Shown: piece after piece, positions 1 through 37,090 of the stretch | How positions within the stretch are numbered: the first letter of the stretch is position 1 | Layout: every line of letters begins with the position of its first letter | Source: an uncultured Candidatus Saccharibacteria bacterium | GTDB taxonomy: Bacteria; Patescibacteriota; Minisyncoccia; Minisyncoccales; Staskawiczbacteraceae | Assembly (NCBI GenBank): GCA_964592355.1 | Contig: CAZQBZ010000001.1 | Coordinates: 1 to 48,062, forward strand | Length of the DNA stretch: 48,062 bases | Direction: 5' to 3' | Translations under genes and position numbers: made by a program | Notes under the pieces: generated by a model | The model's input: only the letters and a program-made list of their open reading frames with translations | Told to the model about the DNA's origin: nothing | Database searches by the model: none

Positions 1-146
1 AGGGAATCGTCTTCCGGGAAAATAAAAAAATAGTCGAAACGGAAAAAAGACAACCTTTGATTGTGAAAGGATAACCAAAACATTATGTTAGGCAGTAAAT
101 AAAATTAACAAAAAAAATTATCGAAGAGGAAAAAATAATTGAAAAC

Positions 147-1362: not shown

Positions 1363-2937
1363 ATGAAAACAGTTCTATTCGCCAGAGTTTCTTCGAGAGA
1401 ACAGGAGGAAACTGGCTACTCCTTGCCCTCCCAAGAAAAACTTCTCAAGGAATATGCCGAGAAAAAAGATTTTAAAATTGGTAAAAAGTTTTCAATTTCA
1501 GAATCGGCATCCGGCCGCTATCAAAGAAAATGTTTCGACGAAATGTTAGATTATGTCAAAAATAACGACATAAAAGTTATAATCTGCGAGAAAGTTGACC
1601 GTCTTACGAGAAATTTAAAAGACGCTGTTTTTATTAACGAGTGGTTGAATAACGATTCGGAGCGACAAGTACATTTTGTAAAAGAAAACTGCATCTTAAG
1701 TAGAGATTCTAAATCTAACGACAAATTTATTTGGAATATCAAAGTTTCAACTGCTCAATACTACATAGATAATCTTTCAGAAGAGGTTAAAAAGGGACAA
1801 AAAGAAAAATTGGCTCAAGGTTGGTTTCCTCAAAAATCTCCTCTTGGTTACAAAACAATGGGAGAAAAAGGCCACAAAATACATGTTGTCGACGAAGATA
1901 AATCTTTTTTAGTTAAAAAAATGTTCGAGTTGTATTCTAGCGGGAATTATTCTCTTAAAAAATTAGTTGAGAAAATGTTTGAGGAGGGATTGAGAACTAA
2001 TGGCGGAAATAAATTATGCAAAAGTAGACTAGCGACCTTGCTATCAGACCCTTTTTATATGGGAAAGATAAGGTGGAATGACGCAGTTTACAGTGGAAAA
2101 CACGAGGCGTTAGTTTCAGAAGAGATGTTCGAATTGGTACAAAGAACGTTAAAAGGCAAAAAGACTCCAAGATACACAAAACACTTATACCTTTTTAAAG
2201 GTTTTTTAAGGTGTAATGAATGCGGAGGACTCATAACATGGGAAAAGCATAAAGGAATCGTCTACGGGCATTGTAATCACTATAGGAGCTGTTCTCAAAC
2301 GACATGGATAAAAGAGCCAGAGGCGGAGAAACAAATCTCGCACTTGTTTGGGAATTTGCAGATAAAAAATCAAAAATTAATGGAGTGGATTAAGCAAGCT
2401 CTGAAAGAAAGCCATCAAGACGAAATTCAATATCATTCTTCTGCTTTGAAGGAATTAAATTTAAGACTAGGACAAATTCAAAAGCGCATAGATAATCTTT
2501 ACGACGACAAAGTTGACGAAAAAATTACAAAAGAATTTTATGAGTCAAAGTTTAAAAAGTATTCAGAAGAAAAAGAAACTGTTTTATCGTCAATTAAAAA
2601 ACATTCTGAGTCTAGTGATAAATATCACGAGATTGGTTTGAATATCTACGAACTCTCCCAAAAAGCACCGGAATTGTATCAAAGGGCGAGTATAGAGGAA
2701 AAACAGCAATTAATGAGATTAGTTTTTGAAAATCTATCCCTTATGGGAGAAAAAATAAATTATTCTTATGCTAAACCTTTTGATTTACTGGTCGAAGCCG
2801 TAAAAGCTACAAATAGTTCTAAAGTGCTTAATTCTAAAGAATTGCCAGCCAATATTTTCGAACCTTCAGATTTTCGAATAAAAACAAACAAAAACAGGGC
2901 TTTTGACCCTGAAATTGCTTCTCTGCTCCGGTGGTAG
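1363..2937 (+). CDS. large serine recombinase (resolvase/invertase N-domain + recombinase domain + zinc ribbon + coiled coil)
   Basis: N-terminus MKTVLFARVSSREQ..GYSLPSQ carries the catalytic Ser motif. Also present: VIICEKVDRLTRN, a Cys cluster CNECGG...GHCNHY..C and a long C-terminal coiled coil. 524 aa. Confidence 0.9.
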   Translation: MKTVLFARVSSREQEETGYSLPSQEKLLKEYAEKKDFKIGKKFSISESASGRYQRKCFDEMLDYVKNNDIKVIICEKVDRLTRNLKDAVFINEWLNNDSERQVHFVKENCILSRDSKSNDKFIWNIKVSTAQYYIDNLSEEVKKGQKEKLAQGWFPQKSPLGYKTMGEKGHKIHVVDEDKSFLVKKMFELYSSGNYSLKKLVEKMFEEGLRTNGGNKLCKSRLATLLSDPFYMGKIRWNDAVYSGKHEALVSEEMFELVQRTLKGKKTPRYTKHLYLFKGFLRCNECGGLITWEKHKGIVYGHCNHYRSCSQTTWIKEPEAEKQISHLFGNLQIKNQKLMEWIKQALKESHQDEIQYHSSALKELNLRLGQIQKRIDNLYDDKVDEKITKEFYESKFKKYSEEKETVLSSIKKHSESSDKYHEIGLNIYELSQKAPELYQRASIEEKQQLMRLVFENLSLMGEKINYSYAKPFDLLVEAVKATNSSKVLNSKELPANIFEPSDFRIKTNKNRAFDPEIASLLRW

Positions 2938-3191
2938 GATTCGAACCTACGACCCACTCCTTACACATTATCCTAAAATTGCTTCTAGGGGTGGACTATA
3001 TCATTGCCATATTCTTTCGAACTTAGGCACCTCGGTATCTAGTCTCTACGGCGCTCCTCCGCAATGCGGAGGTTCCCACGGTATTGCCCACGAGGGGTTT
3101 CACCGTTATCCCGAGATTATTCATCCCAAAATTTCTTTCGGGAGCTGCAAATTGTTTACAGGGAGTCGCTCTACCGCTGAGCTACACCGGA
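2926..3191 (-). tRNA. tRNA-Asn(GUU) gene interrupted by a 194-nt group I intron in the anticodon loop (exons 3191-3158 and 2963-2926)
   Basis: Minus-strand 5' exon: TCCGGTG TA GCTC AGCGGTA GAGC G ACTCC CTGT. Minus-strand 3' exon: TAA GGAGT GGGTC GTAGG TTCGAAT CCTAC CACCGGA G. All four stems pair perfectly. U1-A72 plus discriminator G73 and the joined loop CUGUUAA fit tRNA-Asn. No CCA is encoded. Confidence 0.8.
2964..3157 (-). ncRNA. group I intron (IC3-like, tRNA-anticodon-loop type), no internal ORF
   Basis: The RNA contains CCGUAGAGACUAGAUACCGAGGUGCCUAAGUUCGAAAGAAUAUGG. This closely resembles the conserved P7/P3/P8 core (GUAGAGACUAGA...CCUAAG...UAUGG) of the Azoarcus and cyanobacterial tRNA introns as I recall them. 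P1 can form as exon CUGU paired with intron GCAG, with a U.G wobble at the splice site. The intron ends in G (2964). Confidence 0.7.
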
Positions 3192-3283
3192 ATATATTTT
3201 TATGTTTTCATAATACCCAACTTTTATTTTTTTTTCAAGTGCCGTCATTTTTATTTTGTGATAAGATATGTTTAAGAAATAAA

Positions 3284-3625
3284 ATGTTTAAAAGGTTCAC
3301 AGTTAAAAAACGCGAGCAGGCAAGGAGTTTTGTGCTTGAAAGGCTGGCTTACTTTAATCAATTCTATGGTTTTAAAATAAATCGGGTTGCTATAAAAAAT
3401 ACTTATAGAAGGTGGGGGAGTTGCTCTTCAAAAGGGAATCTTAATTTTAATTACAAGATAATTTATTTAAAACCGGAATTGGCCGATTATCTAATTGTGC
3501 ACGAACTTTGCCATTTGGGAGAATTTAATCATTCGCCTAAATTTCATGCCTTGGTGGCAAGAACAATTCCGAATTATGTTATTATAAATAAAGAATTGAG
3601 AAAAACTTCGATAAAATTTATCTAA
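3284..3625 (+). CDS. DUF45/YgjP-like (M48 family) zinc metallohydrolase, short form
   Basis: HELCHLGEFNHSPKFHALVARTIPNY matches the HExxH...H.p.F signature of the YgjP/DUF45 family. The first ATG clear of the tRNA is at 3284. The ORF-track start at 2903 runs through the tRNA and is spurious. Confidence 0.7.
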   Translation: MFKRFTVKKREQARSFVLERLAYFNQFYGFKINRVAIKNTYRRWGSCSSKGNLNFNYKIIYLKPELADYLIVHELCHLGEFNHSPKFHALVARTIPNYVIINKELRKTSIKFI

Positions 3626-3654
3626 AATTTTTTAAATAAGAGGAGTCAATTTAA

Positions 3655-4401
3655 ATGCAATGCAAACTTTGTTTAGAGGATAGGGAATTATGTAAAAATT
3701 CGCACATAATCCCGAAGTTTATGTATAAGGAAATTTTTGATGAAAAACATACCTTAGTTAAAAGTAATGTTTTGGATTTTGATAAATTAGTTCAAGATGG
3801 CGAGAAAGAAGGAAATCTGCTATGTAAAAAATGCGATAATGAACTCATTGGTTCTTTTGAAAAATACGCGTCAGAAGTTTTATATGGGGGCAATATTCAG
3901 ACAAAGCAACTGTATTATAAAAAATCAGATGAATCAGATGAAGTTGAATATACTCGGGTAGAAGGATTAGATTATAGAAAATTTAAACTATTTCTTTTGT
4001 CTATATTATGGAGGGCTAGTATCTCAAGTAAAGATTTTTTTTCTTCAGTTTCACTCGGCAGATATGAAGAGAAATTAAGGCAAATGATTTTTACTCAAAA
4101 TGCTGGCGAAGAAGGGGATTTTCCTTGTGTTTTGATATCTTATAGAAAAAGAAATTTTCCTAAAATAATAAGGTCGCCCATCAAAAAAAGGACGCAAGAT
4201 AATAAAATAACATATGATTTTTTGATAAGCGCCCTATCTTACAGATTTAAGGTTTCAGAAAATGATTCCTCGGAGTACAAAAAATTAGCAATAAAGAGAA
4301 ATGGTGAATTATACGTATATCATCCATCAGAAGATTTGGCAAAAGAAAGATTGGAAAAAATGCTCGGAATAATCATTCCGGTCGGTATGAAATTTAATTA
4401 A
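3655..4401 (+). CDS. hypothetical Cys-rich protein (CxxC...SHIIPKF...CxxC), unknown family
   Basis: 248-aa ORF preceded by AGGAG (3642-3646). It has two CxxC pairs (CKLC, CKKC) and an LLSILWRAS motif. No confident family assignment. Confidence 0.6.
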   Translation: MQCKLCLEDRELCKNSHIIPKFMYKEIFDEKHTLVKSNVLDFDKLVQDGEKEGNLLCKKCDNELIGSFEKYASEVLYGGNIQTKQLYYKKSDESDEVEYTRVEGLDYRKFKLFLLSILWRASISSKDFFSSVSLGRYEEKLRQMIFTQNAGEEGDFPCVLISYRKRNFPKIIRSPIKKRTQDNKITYDFLISALSYRFKVSENDSSEYKKLAIKRNGELYVYHPSEDLAKERLEKMLGIIIPVGMKFN

Positions 4402-4429
4402 ATTTATAGTTTTGTGGTAAAATAAATCA

Positions 4430-4981
4430 ATGGAATTGGTAGGCATATCTGCTAGTCAAATTTTTTGGTCACTTTGGCCTCTATGGGCTGTTTTATTAGC
4501 AGTTCCTATATTTGAATTAATTACTCTTTGGATTCGCATAATTTTAAAAAAAAGGCGCATTCGTAGAAAATTTATAAAAGGTGGAGAATGGAGGTCGGAT
4601 AATGAGCTTTTACATTGGCTTCGTGAAATGAAGCCTTGGGAATTTGAAGAATATATTGCTTATTTATTCACGCAACTGGGTTACAAAGCTAAAGCAGTTG
4701 GCAAATCACATGATGGAGGCATTGATGTTGTCATTGAAAAAGATGGCGTTGAAAGCTATATCCAATGTAAAAAATTTATAACTTCTAGTGTGACTGTCAG
4801 CCAAGTCCGCGATTTTTAAGGTTCATTGGTTGATCATCTTGCCAAGGGAAAAGCATATTTTATTACTACTAATAAATTTACCTTAGAGGCGGAAAAATTC
4901 GTCGAAGATAAGCCGATTGAACTTGTGGACGGATTTAAATTGATTGAATACATCAAACTTAGCAAAAAACAGGCAAGATAA
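4430..4981 (+). pseudogene. membrane-anchored Mrr-type (Mrr_cat) restriction endonuclease interrupted by an in-frame TAA at 4817-4819
   Basis: An N-terminal TM segment is followed by WEFEEYIAYLFTQLGY...HDGGIDVVIEKDG..YIQCKK, the D...(D/E)xK nuclease core. After VRDF-TAA the same frame continues as GSLVDHLAKGKAYFITTNKFTLEAEKFVEDKPIELVDGFKLIEYI up to a TAA at 4979-4981. This is the expected rest of the domain. Confidence 0.75.
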
Positions 4982-6735: not shown

Positions 6736-7227
6736 ATGAAAAGGGGGATGAAAATATTTATTGCAATCGCAGTTTTATTTTTGGCTCTTGCTTTTGTTCT
6801 TGGCGCATATCTTTATCAAAAATCAATGGCAGATAAAACTGCCAAAGCAACCGAGGAGTCAGCTGTTAAAAACCTGGTTGAAAGTTTTGGGCAAAAGTTA
6901 AAAAATGTTTACTTGCTTTCAATGACGGCATCCGATGACATTGAGCAGAATTATAAAGATTTTGTTTCTGACGACCTTATAAATCGCTGGAAAACAGAGC
7001 CTTTTTCAGCGCCGGGCAGGGAGACTTCCAGCCCTTGGCCTGACAGCATTGTTGTTGAAGAAATCCGCCAGCAAAATCAAAACGCCTACGAAGTTTCTGG
7101 GAAAATAATAAACATGACAAGCTCGGGCGCGGCCTCCAGCCGAAGCTTTCAAGCCACGGTCTTGCGAATCGGCAAAAACAGGACTTGGCTTATATCAAAT
7201 TTTATTTTAGGGGCCTACTTAAATTGA
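6736..7227 (+). CDS. hypothetical membrane-anchored/secreted protein
   Basis: 163 aa with an N-terminal hydrophobic segment IFIAIAVLFLALAFVLGAYL. Its stop overlaps the next start (TGATG). Confidence 0.55.
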   Translation: MKRGMKIFIAIAVLFLALAFVLGAYLYQKSMADKTAKATEESAVKNLVESFGQKLKNVYLLSMTASDDIEQNYKDFVSDDLINRWKTEPFSAPGRETSSPWPDSIVVEEIRQQNQNAYEVSGKIINMTSSGAASSRSFQATVLRIGKNRTWLISNFILGAYLN

Positions 7228-7682
7228 TGAAAAAGAAAAATAAGCAAATAATAAATATAATAATTATTTCTCTTGCCGCAATCGCGCTTGCCGGAGCAAT
7301 TACGTTTTGGATTTATAAAGCATTTTTGGGGCCTAAAACCGATATATATTCGGGCACATGGGTTTGGGAAAAGACAATAATGAACGACGACACAACAATT
7401 ATGCCAAATCAGGCAGAAGCCTTCACTTTAACCTTTGTAATTGGCGGCAGGGTTTCCGGCGAAACGGACTGTAATGGTTTTACCGGCAATTTTGCGATCA
7501 CGCAGGACGGGAGTATAACTTTTAACCAGTTGGCAAGCACAGAAATGTTTTGCCAGGATTCGCAAGAAAATATATTTTTAGACGAAATTCAAAATGTTGA
7601 CCGATATCTTTTTGATAAATCGGGAAACTTGGTGCTCAATTTAAAGTTTGATTCGGGGAGCATTTATTTTAAAAAACAATAA
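7227..7682 (+). CDS. META domain protein (HslJ-like), membrane anchored
   Basis: CNGFTGNFAITQDGSITFNQLASTEMFC...ENIFLDEIQNVDRYLFDKSGNLVL matches the META/DUF306 pattern. The internal ATG at 7227 was chosen because it is translationally coupled to the upstream stop. Confidence 0.75.
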   Translation: MKKKNKQIINIIIISLAAIALAGAITFWIYKAFLGPKTDIYSGTWVWEKTIMNDDTTIMPNQAEAFTLTFVIGGRVSGETDCNGFTGNFAITQDGSITFNQLASTEMFCQDSQENIFLDEIQNVDRYLFDKSGNLVLNLKFDSGSIYFKKQ

Positions 7683-18374: not shown

Positions 18375-18458
18375 GGAGAAGTCGCATAGCGGCTATTGCA
18401 ACGCCCTGGAAAGGCGTGCCCTTAACGGGGCCCGTGGGTTCGAGTCCCACCTTCTCCG
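18375..18458 (+). tRNA. tRNA-Ser(GGA)
   Basis: GGAGAAG/CTTCTCC acceptor stem, ACGCC-CTGGAAA-GGCGT anticodon arm (GGA), long variable arm, GTGGG-TTCGAGT-CCCAC T arm and discriminator G. No CCA is encoded. Confidence 0.85.
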
Positions 18459-18542
18459 CTTTTTAAAGCTTAATATAACCCATATCTGTTAAGGCAATCT
18501 GGACATTGTCCAGTTTTAGCGTAGACTAAAACTTGTATTAAC

Positions 18543-20096
18543 ATGTCTGGTAATAATCAAGAACAAATTATATCTCTTAGAAATTCATGCCTAGCAAATG
18601 CCGAAGCCTTATTGTCAATGGCCGAGAGAGAAATAGGCAAAGGAGTCGATCATGTGTGCTTTCATTTGGGTCTTTTGGCATTAGAAGAAATAGGAGAGGC
18701 TGTAATCGCCACCATAAATTATACTAACGATGTTGCAGGTAAGCGAAATGAGGATTTATATGCTGCAATGTATGATCACGTAAAGAAGGCGTTTTGGGCG
18801 ATATGGGGTGAAAGCGTTATTGACAGTCAGGGGCTTCTTAAAAAGAATTTAGAAGATAATATTCATCTCGCTACGACCCTTCACAAAAGGAGACTCGAAT
18901 CACTTTATACAAACCCAGATAATCCTCTTCCTTTAGATAAACGGGTTGAGGATAAGGAGTTAACCATGCTTATAAACCTTACAAGGGCTCGGTTAGAGTA
19001 TGAAAAAAGTAAGGAAATAAAACCATTAGATGAGGTTGATACCGAAATATTATTGTGGTATTTTAATGCTTTAGAAAATCCTGATATTAGGAAATATATA
19101 TTTAGTAAGCCATCATTGGATAAATTTGTAGAATTACAACAGGGCGGTGAATGGATAAAGTGGTTGCGGCAAGAATTTAAAAAGCATGAAGAGGAAATGC
19201 GTAAGCTTGCAAAGGAAGAAATTGAAAGACGAACACCCGAAGAAAAAGATGCTCTTAAACCAAAATATAAAATGCGAGTGCGAATACAAACACCATCTCA
19301 TTCTATTAGGAATGGCGCTTTCGCAAGTTGGAATTCCGGTATAGACAACATTAAATTGTACAAGTCGGACAAAAAGGGTGCAAAGAAGCTATCAAAGGGC
19401 GAGATAATAATTGATTTTACTTTTCCAAAAAAGTTGCTGGTTCAGGGTCTCTGGGAACACGGTCTCTACATGGCAAAGACGCTCATCGTTGCTCTTAATG
19501 TAGCCACACTCGGTGTTTTTTGGTGGAATGTGCAAAAAGATATTGAAAAATATTATGAAGAAATTTTAGACCTGGAACGAGATCCGAAGGGAGGAGTAAA
19601 GATTGGTATTGTTCCCCCAAAAAGGTTGAATGTTAATTTTGACCAAGGGATGTTTGTTCTTGACGATAAAGAAATGCAAAATGTAAATTACATGGCAGCT
19701 TACCTCCTTCGTAATTCCAAAAAGCTAGAGGAGTATTTGAAATCTTATGCAATGGCATTGACTCTTTTCAGTAAGACTGACATTCATCTGCGACTGGAAG
19801 TTAATGCGTTTGATGAGTTTTATAAAGCGTTAAAGCATGCCATGATAGCCTTAGGAGATTGGGATAGTAAGGCCGATTTTATGAATGCCGTTAAAAACAA
19901 GTTAAAGGAAGTAGGGGAACTAAAAGAAATCGATCGTACACTTCAGCTGGGAAAGATGTTGGACGAGGATGAAAAAAGAGAAAAATATCATCCTATTACA
20001 TTGACAGAAGTTATTGCTATGAAAGTGTACTGTGATTATTATGTACAGCTTAAGGCTCGTGATTATTTCAGAGAAGAAGAGAAAAAAGTCAGTTAG
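18543..20096 (+). CDS. large hypothetical protein with an N-terminal AbiV/HEPN-like domain (candidate abortive-infection/defence protein)
   Basis: 517 aa. The N-terminus CLANAEALLSMAEREIGKGVDHVCFHLGLLALEEIGEAVI resembles the AbiV-family pattern (NA..LL..A..L......A.fL..lA.EE.GKa) as I recall it. The remainder, including a charged coiled-coil segment, is unassigned. Confidence 0.45.
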   Translation: MSGNNQEQIISLRNSCLANAEALLSMAEREIGKGVDHVCFHLGLLALEEIGEAVIATINYTNDVAGKRNEDLYAAMYDHVKKAFWAIWGESVIDSQGLLKKNLEDNIHLATTLHKRRLESLYTNPDNPLPLDKRVEDKELTMLINLTRARLEYEKSKEIKPLDEVDTEILLWYFNALENPDIRKYIFSKPSLDKFVELQQGGEWIKWLRQEFKKHEEEMRKLAKEEIERRTPEEKDALKPKYKMRVRIQTPSHSIRNGAFASWNSGIDNIKLYKSDKKGAKKLSKGEIIIDFTFPKKLLVQGLWEHGLYMAKTLIVALNVATLGVFWWNVQKDIEKYYEEILDLERDPKGGVKIGIVPPKRLNVNFDQGMFVLDDKEMQNVNYMAAYLLRNSKKLEEYLKSYAMALTLFSKTDIHLRLEVNAFDEFYKALKHAMIALGDWDSKADFMNAVKNKLKEVGELKEIDRTLQLGKMLDEDEKREKYHPITLTEVIAMKVYCDYYVQLKARDYFREEEKKVS

Positions 20097-27242: not shown

Positions 27243-29060
27243 GTGGATCCGCAAATAGAGGAAATAAAAAACAGGCTGAATGTTCTGGATGTTGTGGGTT
27301 CATATGTGAAACTCACAAAAACCGGAATAAATCACAGGGGCGTCTGCCCTTTTCACTCAGAAAAGGGGCCGTCTTTTTTCGTTTCACCCGCCAGGCAAAT
27401 GTGGCACTGTTTTGGATGCGGCGCAGGAGGCGATATTTTCGAATTTATTAAAAGAATAGAAGGAGTTGAGTTTCCCGAGGCATTGCGTATCTTAGCTCAA
27501 AAAGCTGGCGTAGAGTTAAAACATTATAATAAAAACCCAAAGGAAAATACAGAAAGACAAAGGCTTTATGATATTTGCGAGTTGGCGGCCGCGTTTTTTG
27601 AAAAACAGCTTTCAGGTCCCGGTTGGGGACAAAAAGCAAAAGAATATTTGCTGGGCAGGGGATTGGAGCCGGAAACGATTAAAAAGTGGAGGTTAGGCTA
27701 TGCTCCTGACACTTGGCAGGGATTGTCGGATTATTTGGTAGGCAAAGGATTTACCAGGCAGGAAATTGTAAAAGCCGGCTTGGCGGTGCAGTCTGACAAA
27801 GGTGGGCAGCCTTATGACAGGTTTCGCGGCAGGATTATTTTTACGATTTTTGACGCAAATTCAAAACCAATAGGCTTTGGCGCCAGAGTTTTTAAGGATG
27901 CAGACAATAAAGAGATTGCCAAATACATAAATACGCCCCAAACTGCGCTTTATGATAAAAGTTCGGTTCTTTACGGGCTTAACTTTGCCAAGATTCCCGT
28001 AAGAAAGAATAATCAGGCGGTTTTGACAGAAGGTTATATGGATGCCATAATGTGCCATCAGGCGGGCTTTGATAACACGATTGCGGTGTCTGGCACGGCT
28101 TTGACAGAAAAACACCTGCCAATTTTAAAAAGACATACTGATAATTTGCTTTTGAGTTTTGATATGGATGCAGCCGGCGACAATGCCACAAAAAGAAGCA
28201 TTGCCTTGGCAGAGGCCCAGGGGTTTAATCTGAAAGTGGTGAATGCCTATGATAATGCCAAAGACCCAGCTGAAATTATTTTAGAAAACCCGCAAAACTG
28301 GCAAGAAGCTGTTAAAAACGCAAGAGGCATAATGGATTATTATTTTGACACAGCCTTTTTGCATTTTGACAAAAATACGCAGCAGGGCAGGCTGGCAATA
28401 GAAAATATAATTTTGCCTGCTATAAAAAGGTTGCCAAACAAAATAGAGCAATCTTTATGGATAGGCAAATTAGCGCCCAAGTTGGGAGTCAAAGAAGATG
28501 CTGTAATGGCAGAACTGGCCAAAGTAAAGATAGAAGCCGTTGCCCAAGTGGCAGCTAAGGCCGACGTCGGAACAAAAGTAATAAGAGCCAGCACACCCGA
28601 GGGAAGAATAAAAATGCTGCAAGAGAGAATTATTTCTTTGATATTAAAAAGCCCTTACAGCCTGAATTTGGTAAAAGCACAGGATATGTATTTGTTTTCG
28701 GGAAACATTAAAAGCTTTTTAGAAAAGGCCAAAGAGGCTTCAATGCCGATATTTGCCAGAGACGACGAGTCAAAAACAGAAGAAGATCTGAGGACGGTCT
28801 TTGCCGACATTTCCAAGGCAACAGAGCATAAAGAATTTTTTGACACACTGGCTTTAAGGGCCGAGGTTGAACTGGAAAATGAGGGCCCCGAAGAAGCAGA
28901 GCTTTGCTTAGCTCAGTTAAAAGATATAAAATTAAGAAGTACTCTGGAAAATTTATCCATGCAAATCGCGGCAGAGGAAAATGCGGATAAAATTGAAGAA
29001 TTAAAAAAGGAGTTTAATATTAAAGCCAAAGAACTGCATTATGGCAATAAAAAAATCTAA
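27243..29060 (+). CDS. dnaG: DNA primase
   Basis: Zinc ribbon [41 protein letters not shown] and DMDAAGD. The GTG at 27243 gives the usual N-terminus. The TTG at 27201 in the ORF track is an alternative start. Confidence 0.92.
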
Positions 29061-30201
29061 AAAGACAGTCGCTAAAAAAGCAAAAAAAGAAACAAAAGCG
29101 GCAAAAAAGACGGCTGTAAAAAAACAAAAAAAGCCCGTTTTTGACGCAGAAGGAATTGCAAAATTGCAGAGAAAAGGCGAGGAACGAGGCTTTGTGACAA
29201 CGGCGGAGATTTTGTATGTTTTTCCAAATATTGAAAGAGATATAGAGGGCTTTGAAAAGATGTATGACGACTTCAGGGAAAAGGGCATAGAGATAAAAGA
29301 AATGCAGGACTTTTTGGAAACTAAAAAACAAAAAGAAAAGAAGCAAAAAAAGGCCCTGATTGGCAAGATAGATCCTATTCAAATGTATTTGAAAGAAATC
29401 GGCAAATCAAGCTTTTTGTCGGCAAGGGAAGAAAAAGAATTGGCAAAGAGAATCGAAGCAGGCGACGAAGAGGCAAAAAACAGGCTTGCTTTGGCAAACC
29501 TCAGGCTTGTGGTTTCTATTGCCAAAAAATATGTGGGCCGCAGCCCAAATTTAACTTTATTGGATTTAATCCAAGAGGGAAATTTGGGGCTTTTCAAGGC
29601 TGTTAAAAAATTTGATTGGAGGAAGGGTTATAAATTTTCGACTTATGCGACCTGGTGGATCAGGCAATCGATTACAAGGGCTTTGGCTGACCAGGCCAGG
29701 ACAATCCGTATTCCTGTGCACATGATAGAAACAATTTCAAAATACACAAAAGTGCGCAAATCTTTATTGCAAGAGCTTGGCAGAGAGCCTCTTGCCGAGG
29801 AAATTGCGGCTGAAATGGGATTAGAGGTGGATAAAGTCCATCATATCAGAAAAATTGCCCAGAAAGCCGTTTCCTTGGAAACCCCCGTAGGAGAAGATAA
29901 GGATAAACAGGATTCGGTGCTGGCCGAGTTTATAAAAGACGACAAGACAATAGCCCCAAATACAGAAGCTTCAAGAAATCTATTAAAAGACAGGCTGAAA
30001 GAAATTTCAGGAGAGCTTACTCCAAGAGAATTGAAAATTTTGGGAATGAGATTCGGTCTTGAAGACGGAGTAATGCATACCCTAGAAGAAACAGGGGAGG
30101 AGTTTGGCGTTACAAGAGAGAGAATCAGGCAAATCCAGGCAAAAGCATTGGAAAAACTCAGAAAACACAAAGAACTCAAAAAGGTTAAGGATTATTATTA
30201 A
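29041..30201 (+). CDS. rpoD: RNA polymerase primary sigma factor
   Basis: Regions 1.2 to 4 are all present: [51 protein letters not shown] and [17 protein letters not shown]. The N-terminus is Lys-rich. Lies directly after dnaG. Confidence 0.95.
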
Positions 30202-34920: not shown

Positions 34921-36069
34921 ATGCAGTTTAAAATTTCAAAAAAATCAAATAAAAGCCAGGCCCGACTTGGATTTTTAGAAACCGAAAACGGAGTTGTGGA
35001 AACTCCTTGTTTGGTTGGCGTGGCAACTCAGGCGGCCGTGAAAACTTTAACATCCGAGGAGGCCTTGCAGGCAAAGTCGCAAATGCTAATTTGCAACACA
35101 TTTCATTTGCATTTAAAGCCCGGCCAAGACATTGTGGCCAAGGCGGGCGGTTTGCATGATTTTATGAATTGGAAAAAGCCCCTAATGACAGATTCTGGGG
35201 GCTTCCAAGTGTTTTCTTTGGGGTTTGGCCGAGATTATGGAATGGGTAAAGTTTTATCCGCCAAAGGCGGATCCGCCTCTGGCGGAAAAGTTGTGGAGGC
35301 AGGAGCCCAACCAAGTAAAATAAAGATTACAGATGATGGAGTATTTTTTAGGTCGCCGGTTGATGGGGCGGAACTGTTTTTAGGCCCCAAAGAATCAATA
35401 AAGATTCAGGAAAAATTGGGAGCAGATATTATTTTTGCCTTCGATGAATGCACCAGTCCTATCGCAGATTACGAATATACTAAAAATTCTTTGCAGAAAA
35501 CCCACAAATGGGCGAAAATCTGCCTAAAAGCCAAAAAATCAGACCAAGCCCTATTTGGCATCGTGCAAGGCGGGAAATTTAAAGATTTGCGCGAGCAATC
35601 AGCAAAGTTTATCGGGGGCTTGGATTTTGACGGATTTGGCATTGGCGGTGAATTTGGCGACGATAAAAGCCAAATGGCAAACATGATAGGCTGGTGCTTG
35701 CAAGAATTGCCGGAAAAAAAGCCAAGGCATCTGCTGGGCATCGGATATTTGGAAGATATGGAGCAAATTATTAAGGCTGGAATTGATACATTTGATTGCA
35801 CCGTTCCCACGCATTATGCCCGTCATGGAATTGCCTTTACTAAAGAGGGCAAGCTTGATTTGAATAAGTCTCAGTTTTTAAAAGACCGAGAGCCTCTGGA
35901 TTCGGACTGCATGTGTTTTGTGTGCCAAAATTACAAAAGAAATTACATATCACACTTATTAAAAGCCAGAGAAATTACGGCCTTAAAGCTTTTAACGTTT
36001 CATAATCTTTTTTATTTTAACACTTTTGCCGAGAAATTAAGACAGGAAATAAAAAATGGAAAAATTTGA
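34921..36069 (+). CDS. tgt: tRNA-guanine transglycosylase (queuine tRNA-ribosyltransferase)
   Basis: MTDSGGFQVFSL, FAFDEC, LFGIVQGG, LLGIG and the Zn site CMCFVCQNY...SHL. Confidence 0.92.
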   Translation: MQFKISKKSNKSQARLGFLETENGVVETPCLVGVATQAAVKTLTSEEALQAKSQMLICNTFHLHLKPGQDIVAKAGGLHDFMNWKKPLMTDSGGFQVFSLGFGRDYGMGKVLSAKGGSASGGKVVEAGAQPSKIKITDDGVFFRSPVDGAELFLGPKESIKIQEKLGADIIFAFDECTSPIADYEYTKNSLQKTHKWAKICLKAKKSDQALFGIVQGGKFKDLREQSAKFIGGLDFDGFGIGGEFGDDKSQMANMIGWCLQELPEKKPRHLLGIGYLEDMEQIIKAGIDTFDCTVPTHYARHGIAFTKEGKLDLNKSQFLKDREPLDSDCMCFVCQNYKRNYISHLLKAREITALKLLTFHNLFYFNTFAEKLRQEIKNGKI

Positions 36070-37090
36070 AGACGTAATTCAAAAATACAATTACGAACTG
36101 CCCGAAAAATTGATTGCCCAAAAACCCGCCTCTCCTCGCGACGAGGCGCGTCTTTTAATATATAACAGGACGGAAGATAAGGTTTATTGCGATAAATTTT
36201 TGAATATTGCGAAATATTTACCCAAAAACGCGGTTTTGGTTTTTAACGAAACAAAAGTTTTGCCCGCAAGATTGAATTTAAAAAAAGAAACAGGAGGAAA
36301 AGTTGAAATTTTGTATTTAAAAACCAGGGGAGGCCTGTTGGAAGTTTTGGCTGACAGAAAATTAAATGTCTGCGCAAAAATATTGTTAAATAAAAACATT
36401 GTTTTTGAAGTTGCGGCCCGCGACCAAAAGATTTATTTGTTAAAACCCTTGTTTGATGTCAAAAAAATCGATGCAGTTTTAGAAAAATATGGAGTGGCTC
36501 CGATTCCGCCATATATAAAACATTCACCTCTTTCAAAGGGTCAGTTAAAACAGCAATATCAGACAATTTTTGCAAAGCATTCTGGTTCTGTTGCTGCCCC
36601 CACGGCAAGTTTGCATTTTACGAAAAGAGTTTTGGCAAGCCTCAAAAAGGCGAAAATTAACGTAAAATTTGTTACTTTGCACGTTGGGCTTGGCACTTTT
36701 TCCCCATTGACCCAAGAAAATTTAGAAACTAAAAAGCTTCACTCTGAATTTTATAATATAAACAAAAAAACCGCGGAATTCCTGAATAAATCAAAGCATC
36801 AGGGCAAGCCAATTATCGCTGTTGGCACAACTGTTGCCAGAACACTGGAGGCTGCATCCAAAAATGGCCAAATTAAAAATTTGTCAGGTCAAACCGATAT
36901 TTTTATTTCAGAAGGGTACAAATTTGGTTTCATTGATGGAATGGTCACCAATTTCCATGTGCCCAAATCCAGTCTCTTGATGTTGGTTGCGGCGCTTGTC
37001 GGCAGGGAAAAAATTATGGAGATTTATAAATTTGCCATTGCTAAAAAATTTAAGTTTTATTCTTTTGGCGACGGGATGCTGATAATATAG
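36056..37090 (+). CDS. queA: S-adenosylmethionine:tRNA ribosyltransferase-isomerase
   Basis: YNYELPEKLIAQKPASPRDEARLL, AAPTASLHFT, LHVGLGTF, AVGTTVARTLE and FYSFGDGMLI. Confidence 0.92.
   Translation: MEKFEDVIQKYNYELPEKLIAQKPASPRDEARLLIYNRTEDKVYCDKFLNIAKYLPKNAVLVFNETKVLPARLNLKKETGGKVEILYLKTRGGLLEVLADRKLNVCAKILLNKNIVFEVAARDQKIYLLKPLFDVKKIDAVLEKYGVAPIPPYIKHSPLSKGQLKQQYQTIFAKHSGSVAAPTASLHFTKRVLASLKKAKINVKFVTLHVGLGTFSPLTQENLETKKLHSEFYNINKKTAEFLNKSKHQGKPIIAVGTTVARTLEAASKNGQIKNLSGQTDIFISEGYKFGFIDGMVTNFHVPKSSLLMLVAALVGREKIMEIYKFAIAKKFKFYSFGDGMLII

Follow-up and report, generated by a model that had tools for sequence, protein, structure and literature searches.

A tRNA-Asn(GUU) gene split within its anticodon by a compact IC3-like group I intron in a Patescibacteria contig

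The split tRNA-Asn gene and the fold of its intron

We analysed a 48,062-nucleotide (nt) stretch of contig CAZQBZ010000001.1 (hereafter the window, meaning this whole stretch), a bacterial chromosome segment with genes for the F-ATPase as well as dnaG, rpoD, tgt, queA and mnmA, and found on its minus strand a tRNA-Asn(GUU) gene that is split inside the anticodon by an intron. The features of the locus are summarized in Table 1. When the two exons were joined, ARAGORN called a 72-nt tRNA-Asn(gtt) with a perfect cloverleaf (stems of 7, 4, 5 and 5 bp) and the anticodon GUU in a canonical 7-nt loop, and in intron mode on the window the same program called tRNA-Asn(gtt) at c[2925,3191] with an intron of 194 nt. 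The 3' exon ends without an encoded CCA. On its own strand the gene is bracketed by a promoter-like site, which would act as a promoter judging from its match to the consensus, and by a terminator-like hairpin. From promoter to terminator, the unit does not differ by a single base from its counterparts in two other independent assemblies (L001, NCBI GCA_030154545.1, and L002, a Logan assembly), and the split gene is therefore not an assembly artefact.

Table 1. Features of the split tRNA-Asn locus in window coordinates (intron position i corresponds to window coordinate 3158-i)
Feature	Coordinates	Strand	Description
5' exon, tRNA-Asn nt 1-35	3158..3191	-	34 nt, TCCGGTGTAGCTCAGCGGTAGAGCGACTCCCTGT; acceptor 5' strand UCCGGUG, D arm, anticodon-stem 5' strand, loop C32 U33 G34 U35
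3' exon, tRNA-Asn nt 36-73	2926..2963	-	38 nt, TAAGGAGTGGGTCGTAGGTTCGAATCCTACCACCGGAG; U36 A37 A38, anticodon-stem 3' strand, variable loop, T arm, acceptor CACCGGA, G73
Sigma-70-like promoter (putative)	3210..3238	-	TTGAAA-17 nt-TATTAT; 10/12 consensus matches; -10 hexamer ends 19 nt upstream of tRNA position 1
Intrinsic-terminator-like hairpin	2885..2911	-	CAGGG-UCAAAAG-CCCUG then UUUUUGUUUG (U-run); 15 nt after tRNA
Group I intron	2964..3157	-	194 nt, no open reading frame (ORF)
P1	3145..3161	-	exon CUGU (3161-3158) and intron A1-A3 with guide UUUGCAG (3151-3145; U7-G13); splice-site wobble U35.G10; from cmscan alignment
P2	3124..3143	-	hairpin, 8 bp, GAAA tetraloop; intron 15-34
P3 5' strand	3111..3117	-	intron 41-47; pairs with 3035-3029
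P3 3' strand	3029..3035	-	intron 123-129; from fold and alignment
P4 and P5	3078..3106	-	P4 ACGGUG/UACCGU (intron 52-57/75-80) around short P5 CCC/GGG (62-64/69-71); J4/5 GAAA, J5/4 CAAU
P6 and P6a	3050..3077	-	P6 (GGG/C-CC) and P6a hairpin of 7 bp; intron 81-108
P7 5' strand (predicted)	3040..3046	-	G-A(bulge)-GACUA, within GUAGAGACUAGA; pairs with 2998-2993 (UAGUCC), pseudoknot across P3; read from sequence
P8	3006..3028	-	intron 130-152; canonical 11-nt tetraloop receptor CCUAAG...UAUGG and GAAA loop
J8/7 and P7 3' strand	2993..3005	-	AAUGAUAUAGUCC; invariant GAUAUAGUCC
P9	2972..2989	-	hairpin, 7 bp, GCAA (GNRA) loop; intron 169-186
Omega-G	2964	-	last intron nucleotide, position 194; ...AAUGUG, then exon UAAGG
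Large serine recombinase gene	1363..2937	+	converges on tRNA; last 12 nt overlap tRNA 3' end
ORF called 240-aa 'YgjP-like'	2903..3625	+	called by gene callers in two assemblies; first ~100 codons antisense to tRNA and intron

The gene escapes routine searches. Run on the whole window, default ARAGORN returned tRNA-Ser(GGA) at 18375-18459 as its sole tRNA, and Rfam at gathering thresholds likewise matched only this tRNA-Ser(GGA), so that both missed the split tRNA-Asn; its detection needed ARAGORN in intron mode and a local Rfam search by E-value. The latter, a permissive search of 501 nt, matched the model Intron_gpI (RF00028) from end to end (model positions 1-253) at window 2972-3167 on the minus strand with 33.1 bits and an E-value of 8.9e-7 (about 1e-4 when scaled to the whole window), and no other Rfam family came near this score at the locus.

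The minimum free energy (MFE) fold of the 194 nt alone (-58.8 kcal/mol, z = -2.96) contains P2, P3, P4, P5, P6/6a, P8 and P9 in canonical order. P1 forms between the end of the 5' exon and the internal guide and sets a U.G pair at the 5' splice site, and a guanosine stands immediately 5' of the 3' exon; both traits are those of group I introns. P7 is predicted to pair G112 with C165 and, past a bulged A113, G114-C164 through A118-U160, and is presumed to be the guanosine-binding helix. Given the E-value even after scaling to the window, the z-score of the fold and the identity of the unit in two assemblies, the resemblance of the intron to group I is far beyond chance. The intron is compact, has P2 and a short P5, and matches the motifs and architecture of the Azoarcus IC3 intron at 61% identity; by sequence we class it as compact and IC3-like. 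By analogy, the GAAA loop of P2 (L2) probably docks in the 11-nt receptor in P8, and the GCAA loop of P9 (L9) on P5. Note that an archaeal or eukaryotic protein-spliced intron of the bulge-helix-bulge type is excluded by the complete group I core and the bacterial host.

These results largely bear out an initial annotation made from the letters alone, which had joined 3191-3158 to 2963-2926 on the minus strand into a perfect cloverleaf and taken the intervening 194 nt for a small IC3-type group I intron with a terminal G and a P1 wobble at the 5' splice site (CUGU paired with GCAG). The checks that it had proposed came out in agreement for ARAGORN, which found the split gene in its intron-aware mode, and for the fold, in which P3-P9 form in canonical order; the RF00028 match was significant and full-length, although its score fell under the gathering score. 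The three strings that it had taken for the core, GUAGAGACUAGA, CCUAAG and UAUGG, are all present in the intron; CCUAAG...UAUGG is a GAAA-tetraloop receptor and not part of the catalytic core, which leaves the assignment to group I unaffected.

To the support from the MFE fold and the cmscan alignment, covariation can be added. Scanning the GTDB at one genome per species with the pattern GTAGAGACTAGATACC-N18-48-GATATAGTCC returned at least 120 loci, almost all from metagenome-assembled genomes (MAGs) of Patescibacteria, the Candidate Phyla Radiation (CPR). The window intron and 25 relatives (hosted by 10 tRNA-Asn, 8 tRNA-Asp and 7 tRNA-Tyr genes) were aligned with MAFFT, and the structure of the window intron was projected onto the columns. 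Over these 26 sequences, standard pairs occupied 87.5% of the cells, versus 33-43% when the 3' partners were slid by 1-3 columns; 37 of the 61 pairs showed changes on both sides (18-23 in the slid controls), the compensatory cells numbered 270 (46-79 in the controls), and none of 500 shuffles reached the observed value on any measure. Covarying pairs were found in P2 (both-side changes in all 8), P3 (5/7), P6/6a (6/9), P8 (6/7) and P9 (6/7), and P4 is also supported, being 100% paired across the alignment with a first pair that swaps from A-U to U-A. The splice-site U.G wobble is invariant (26/26), and the P1 pair beside it, formed by intron nt 1 and the guide base 5' of the G, varies as AU (14), CG (5), GC (3), GU (3) and UG (1) and is never unpaired. 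P7 is paired in 26/26 but invariant, both of its strands having been fixed by the search pattern. The group I fold, P7 apart, is established.

Proposed splicing and identity of the host tRNA

We hold it to be highly probable that the locus is a Patescibacteria tRNA-Asn(GUU) gene whose U35 and U36 are separated by a compact IC3-like group I intron of 194 nt that contains no ORF, and we infer that it is transcribed and spliced as follows. Its own promoter would yield a precursor of about 290 nt, folded as P1-P2-P3-P4-P5-P6/6a-P7-P3'-P8-P7'-P9, in which the loop CUGU would pair with the guide GCAG to form P1 and present U35.G10. In the two-step transesterification of group I introns, an exogenous guanosine held in P7 would attack after the wobble-paired U35, the terminal G194 would next take the guanosine site, and the freed 3' OH of U35 would attack the bond before U36; ligation of the exons would then give the 72-nt tRNA-Asn with the loop CUGUUAA.

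Several points weigh against this reading. The RF00028 score of 33.1 is lower than the curated gathering score of 50, and P10 would span merely about 2 bp. P7 and part of P3' lie outside the covariation test, fixed as they are by the pattern that gathered the relatives, and it is conservation and analogy that point to P7. The signature by which the tRNA is recognised as tRNA-Asn (see below) comes from established knowledge, the sample containing no uninterrupted CPR tRNA-Asn for comparison. Finally, the search of the source genome for tRNA genes was limited to the window, and a second, uninterrupted tRNA-Asn may lie elsewhere. As to the first of these points, the gathering score was reached by just 1 of 16 clearly homologous Asn introns, and Williams (2020; bioRxiv 10.1101/2020.01.27.920355) states that none of the Rfam group I seeds is bacterial and gives a working cut-off of 18-20 bits. 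The gathering cut-off is therefore a poor guide for this class, and the score below it is a limit of the model's sensitivity, not evidence against group I membership.

The last of these points bears on the possibility that the intron is a decayed, non-splicing relic in a tRNA pseudogene and that tRNA-Asn is supplied by another gene. The surroundings of the locus are indeed low in GC and rearranged, containing gene fragments and a recombinase, and the intron has lost the endonuclease ORF that is carried by a relative, L064 (see below). However, all 61 proposed pairs are standard in the window copy, which also retains each of the 72 alignment columns that do not vary among the 26 introns, and the promoter and the terminator are intact. 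Moreover, the 120 uninterrupted tRNA genes found in the 120 CPR matches listed include no tRNA-Asn, against at least 33 interrupted copies, suggesting that the split gene is normally the working copy. We consider decay improbable.

A second alternative concerns the junction. Because GU is repeated at both junctions (GU/UGU), two joins are formally possible, CUGU/UAA after U35, which makes tRNA-Asn, and CU/UGUAA after U33, which makes tRNA-Thr(UGU) with the intron two nt further 5' ('Thr.2Ug') and the product CU/UGUAAGG. This ambiguity, which the initial annotation had pointed out, is genuine, since each join gives a valid cloverleaf with U at position -1 and G at omega; ARAGORN picks Thr(tgt) for 26 homologous loci, and Williams (2020) has a Thr.2Ug class whose seed Pgr210 closely resembles the window intron. 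The wobble discriminates between the two joins: the Thr junction would set U(-1) opposite an A, with the invariant U.G wobble two bases later, whereas the join after U35 alone sets U(-1) opposite the guide G, which places the insertion between anticodon nt 35 and 36, as originally proposed.

The same distinction is visible in the acceptor stem. In bacteria, U1-A72 together with G73 is a signature of tRNA-Asn, as in Escherichia coli tRNA-Asn, and U1-A72 is a recognition element of GatCAB. U1-A72 and G73 are found in the window gene and are shared by 32 homologues, making 33 split Asn genes among the matches listed, whereas the uninterrupted tRNA-Thr genes in related loci, 20 of them with the anticodon UGU, have G1-C72, C2-G71, C3 (G-G-C on the 3' side) and U73 in 51 of 51 cases; the initial preference for Asn on the strength of these bases was thus justified. 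Every one of the 26 loci typed as Thr(tgt) by ARAGORN starts with U1 and ends with A72-G73, and in some homologues, such as L062, omega-G is present at the Asn junction only. The position of the P1 wobble, the Thr controls and the omega-G of the homologues therefore identify the gene as tRNA-Asn, not tRNA-Thr, and we reject the Thr reading as very improbable.

A junction rule that combines U(-1) opposite the guide G, omega-G and a 7-nt loop resolves 79 loci including the window among the matches listed, with tRNA-Asn the commonest host of this intron lineage (33), followed by Asp (25), Tyr (19), His (1) and Leu (1). Every one of the 33 Asn genes has U1, CUGU at the 5' splice site and UG before UAA at the 3' splice site. 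Eight loci that ARAGORN had called Ser(tga) become Tyr under the rule; in intron mode the program slides the junction by two bases, turning Asn into Thr(tgt) and Tyr into Ser(tga). Among the 120 loci, 31 were without a split-tRNA call (contig ends, ORF-containing introns of more than 700 nt and unusual tRNAs; 3 were typed by hand).

Genomic setting and intron lineage

At 90% identity the AtpD encoded in the window clusters with a protein from Candidatus Staskawiczbacteria, and for the RpoD and DnaG of the window the nearest matches are Patescibacteria loci, so the window comes from the group in which the intron is common. Window positions 1-95 have no match in the otherwise 99.98%-identical contigs L001 and L002, which points either to an artefact at the end of the contig or to assemblies that differ in structure.

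That there is no RNA gene at all, the region being the N-terminal coding part of the 240-aa YgjP-like protein and its RNA likeness fortuitous, is scarcely credible even though gene callers annotate the ORF in two assemblies and its N-terminal 100 residues match other genomes by tblastn, because all of those matches (residues 2-99) lie antisense to other intron-bearing tRNA genes, Pfam YgjP is confined to residues 134-234 (profile 106-206 of 207), downstream of the tRNA, and a protein on the opposite strand cannot explain covariation at the RNA level. The N-terminal ~100 codons are almost certainly not coding, and the true YgjP-like gene is a 5'-truncated fragment. This fragment belongs to a stretch (window 3300-4819) of 33-34% GC, compared with about 40% elsewhere, which also contains a 248-aa ORF that matches no family and part of an Mrr_cat nuclease domain (profile 1-69 of 115); the stretch resembles a restriction or defence islet in decay next to the tRNA. 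Another tRNA in the window, the tRNA-Ser(GGA), is directly followed by a gene for an AbiV-type HEPN protein of 517 aa (18543-20096, plus strand), a candidate defence gene beside a tRNA.

The serine recombinase gene has counterparts at other loci. In the window and in seven further loci (L053, L058, L066, L148, L087, L096 and L110), a large serine recombinase gene converges on an intron-bearing tRNA gene and ends at or inside its 3' part, and in 8/8 the tRNA is tRNA-Asn, a pattern suggesting that in CPR bacteria a family of serine-recombinase elements uses tRNA-Asn as an attachment site. A search upstream of the recombinase for a direct repeat of the tRNA 3' end yielded only chance 10-13-mers and no island boundary, a result that is uninformative, since integration by serine integrases does not generate long repeats and the contig extends only 11 kb further in that direction.

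As for the position of the gene, in the relatives L064, L110, L122 and L163 the split tRNA-Asn follows dnaG-rpoD closely on the downstream side, whereas in the window it is 26 kb from rpoD (29041-30201) and on the opposite strand. Homology between window 2925-3239 and L064 6972-7597 breaks off precisely at the 3' end of the tRNA on one side and 48 nt before its 5' end on the other; hence either the tRNA-Asn of the window was relocated or its flanks were replaced.

L064 is the closest relative by RpoD among the loci compared (88.6% amino-acid identity) and has an intron at the identical tRNA-Asn site, 83.5% identical over 230 nt from the guide sequence to the 3' exon. Its P1 loop contains about 320 extra nt (7050-7369) encoding an HNH-like ORF (...CANCHREI...). 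In L064, L096 and L110 alike, an ORF of 80-110 aa lies in the P1 loop, downstream of the 5' splice site and ahead of the guide, and carries the motif CxxC...HH...CANCHxExH. Because the Pfam HNH result was sub-threshold (E about 0.003 for L096 and no match for L110) and the naming goes by the motif, we call these ORFs merely HNH-like. From its sequence, the window copy is best read as the endonuclease-free form of an intron that is or was at times mobile.

Nearest neighbours among the introns share the host tRNA in 61 of 76 cases, versus 34% expected by chance, with some crossover between Asn and Tyr. This fits mostly vertical descent within each tRNA gene with occasional switches among tRNAs that share CUGU; the lineage's guide GCAG targets the CUGU common to tRNAs with GUN anticodons, namely Asn, Asp, Tyr and rarely His. 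Among viral contigs (IMG/VR), 44 carry an IC3-type core (GTAGAGACTAGA...CCTAAG...TATGG), mostly inside phage tRNA genes for Leu(UAA/CAA), Met(CAU) and Arg(UCU) and possibly Phe, Pro, Tyr and Cys; none of these 44 loci has tRNA-Asn as the host.

Tentatively, and with somewhat more doubt than confidence, we propose that the lineage is a CUGU-loop specialist of the GUN (queuosine-family) tRNAs in Patescibacteria, which would move among Asn, Asp, Tyr and His genes by means of the 4-nt GCAG with the help of the HNH-like endonuclease in the P1 loop of some copies, and that the split tRNA-Asn would also be a recurrent attachment site of elements with large serine recombinases, the genes of which overlap the 3' end of the tRNA; as a corollary, 'Thr.2Ug' would be mis-typed Asn.4Ug and Asn a major host of bacterial tRNA introns.

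The queuosine-34 pathway genes tgt and queA are themselves in the window (34921-37090, plus strand), and the substrates of this pathway, the GUN tRNAs for Asn, Asp, Tyr and His, are the hosts of the intron lineage, a match that may be a coincidence. In the precursor, the Tgt recognition element U33-G34-U35 would be locked within P1.

Comparison with known systems

The classical bacterial settings of tRNA group I introns are four: Leu(UAA), fMet, Ile2(CAU) and Arg(CCU). The initial annotation had accordingly taken tRNA-Asn, split between positions 35 and 36, for an unusual host and insertion site, a view that does not hold: the setting was published in 2020 and is common in CPR bacteria, and Asn is the commonest host of this lineage among the matches listed. 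The survey of Williams (2020) reports about 80,000 genomes with 5,292 intron-split tRNA genes in 21 tRNA/site settings including 'Asn.4Ug', and its seed alignment holds Pam37.Asn.4Ug together with Tyr.4Ug, Asp.4Ug and Thr.2Ug seeds. According to Williams (2020), the introns of the four classical bacterial settings are labelled IC3 in the intron database cited there. The window gene shows the features of Asn.4Ug, namely a loop of C-U-G-U then U-A-A, U(-1), omega-G and tRNA-Asn as the host. The locus is thus a new, unannotated split tRNA-Asn, and the known group I hosts and insertion sites are unchanged.

The consequences are mainly for annotation. Besides the two programs whose standard settings miss it, the gene is, going by what the program's authors state, invisible to tRNAscan-SE, which the tRNAscan-SE 2.0 paper describes as not designed for such introns, and Lui et al. 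(2021) remarked that group I introns made tRNAs in circularised CPR genomes hard to detect. Because standard tools miss the split gene, the MAG would seem to be without a tRNA-Asn, and annotations of CPR genomes will often give the impression that this tRNA is 'missing'. Once the intron is recognised, the tRNA set becomes complete and a spurious 240-aa ORF can be discarded along with its antisense-intron 'homologues'. The two-base slippage of the junction in intron-aware tools mis-types genes and probably affected a published class. The gene also adds one more case to the CPR bacteria with many self-splicing introns in essential RNAs.

Pam37.Asn.4Ug agrees with the window intron in the host tRNA, the insertion after loop nt 4 (U35), U(-1), omega-G, a P1 with the exon ..UGU and the core strings of J6/7-P7 and J8/7. 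However, Pam37, at 276 nt, has one more hairpin behind P2 as well as an insert of the P7.1/7.2 type, and is 54% identical over the longer sequence; these inserts and the low identity place the window intron in a separate, more compact sub-lineage.

The published sequences closest to the window intron are Mba143.Tyr.4Ug (72%) and Pgr210.'Thr'.2Ug (67%), which share with it the guide GCAG, GAUAACGGUGAA...ACCGUGG (P3-P4), CCGUAGAGACUAGAUACC, GAUAUAGUCCA, the overall length and the set of helices. Mba143 differs in its host, tRNA-Tyr. Pgr210 is labelled Thr.2Ug, yet its P1 (cuguc/GGCAG) sets the wobble U two bases past the labelled site, so it is probably Asn.4Ug like the window intron; judged by this pairing, the published Thr.2Ug class of Williams (2020) is probably mis-typed Asn.4Ug.

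The structural archetype is the IC3 intron in pre-tRNA-Ile(CAU) of Azoarcus sp. BH72 (Aol6.Ile2.5Ug), which likewise has about 200 nt without an ORF, the helices P1-P9, GUAGAGACUAGA at J6/7-P7, a GAAA loop on P2, the 11-nt receptor CCUAAG..UAUGG in P8 and a GNRA loop on P9. Unlike the window intron, it lies in tRNA-Ile2 after nt 36, is GC-rich and has a second receptor in P5/P5a, where the window intron has a short P5 without one. The cyanobacterial and plastid tRNA-Leu(UAA) intron (Leu.3Ug) is more distant (56% identity): it too is a group I intron that splits the anticodon of a bacterial tRNA at a U.G splice site, but it is inserted after U34 of another tRNA, is longer and is detected by standard models.

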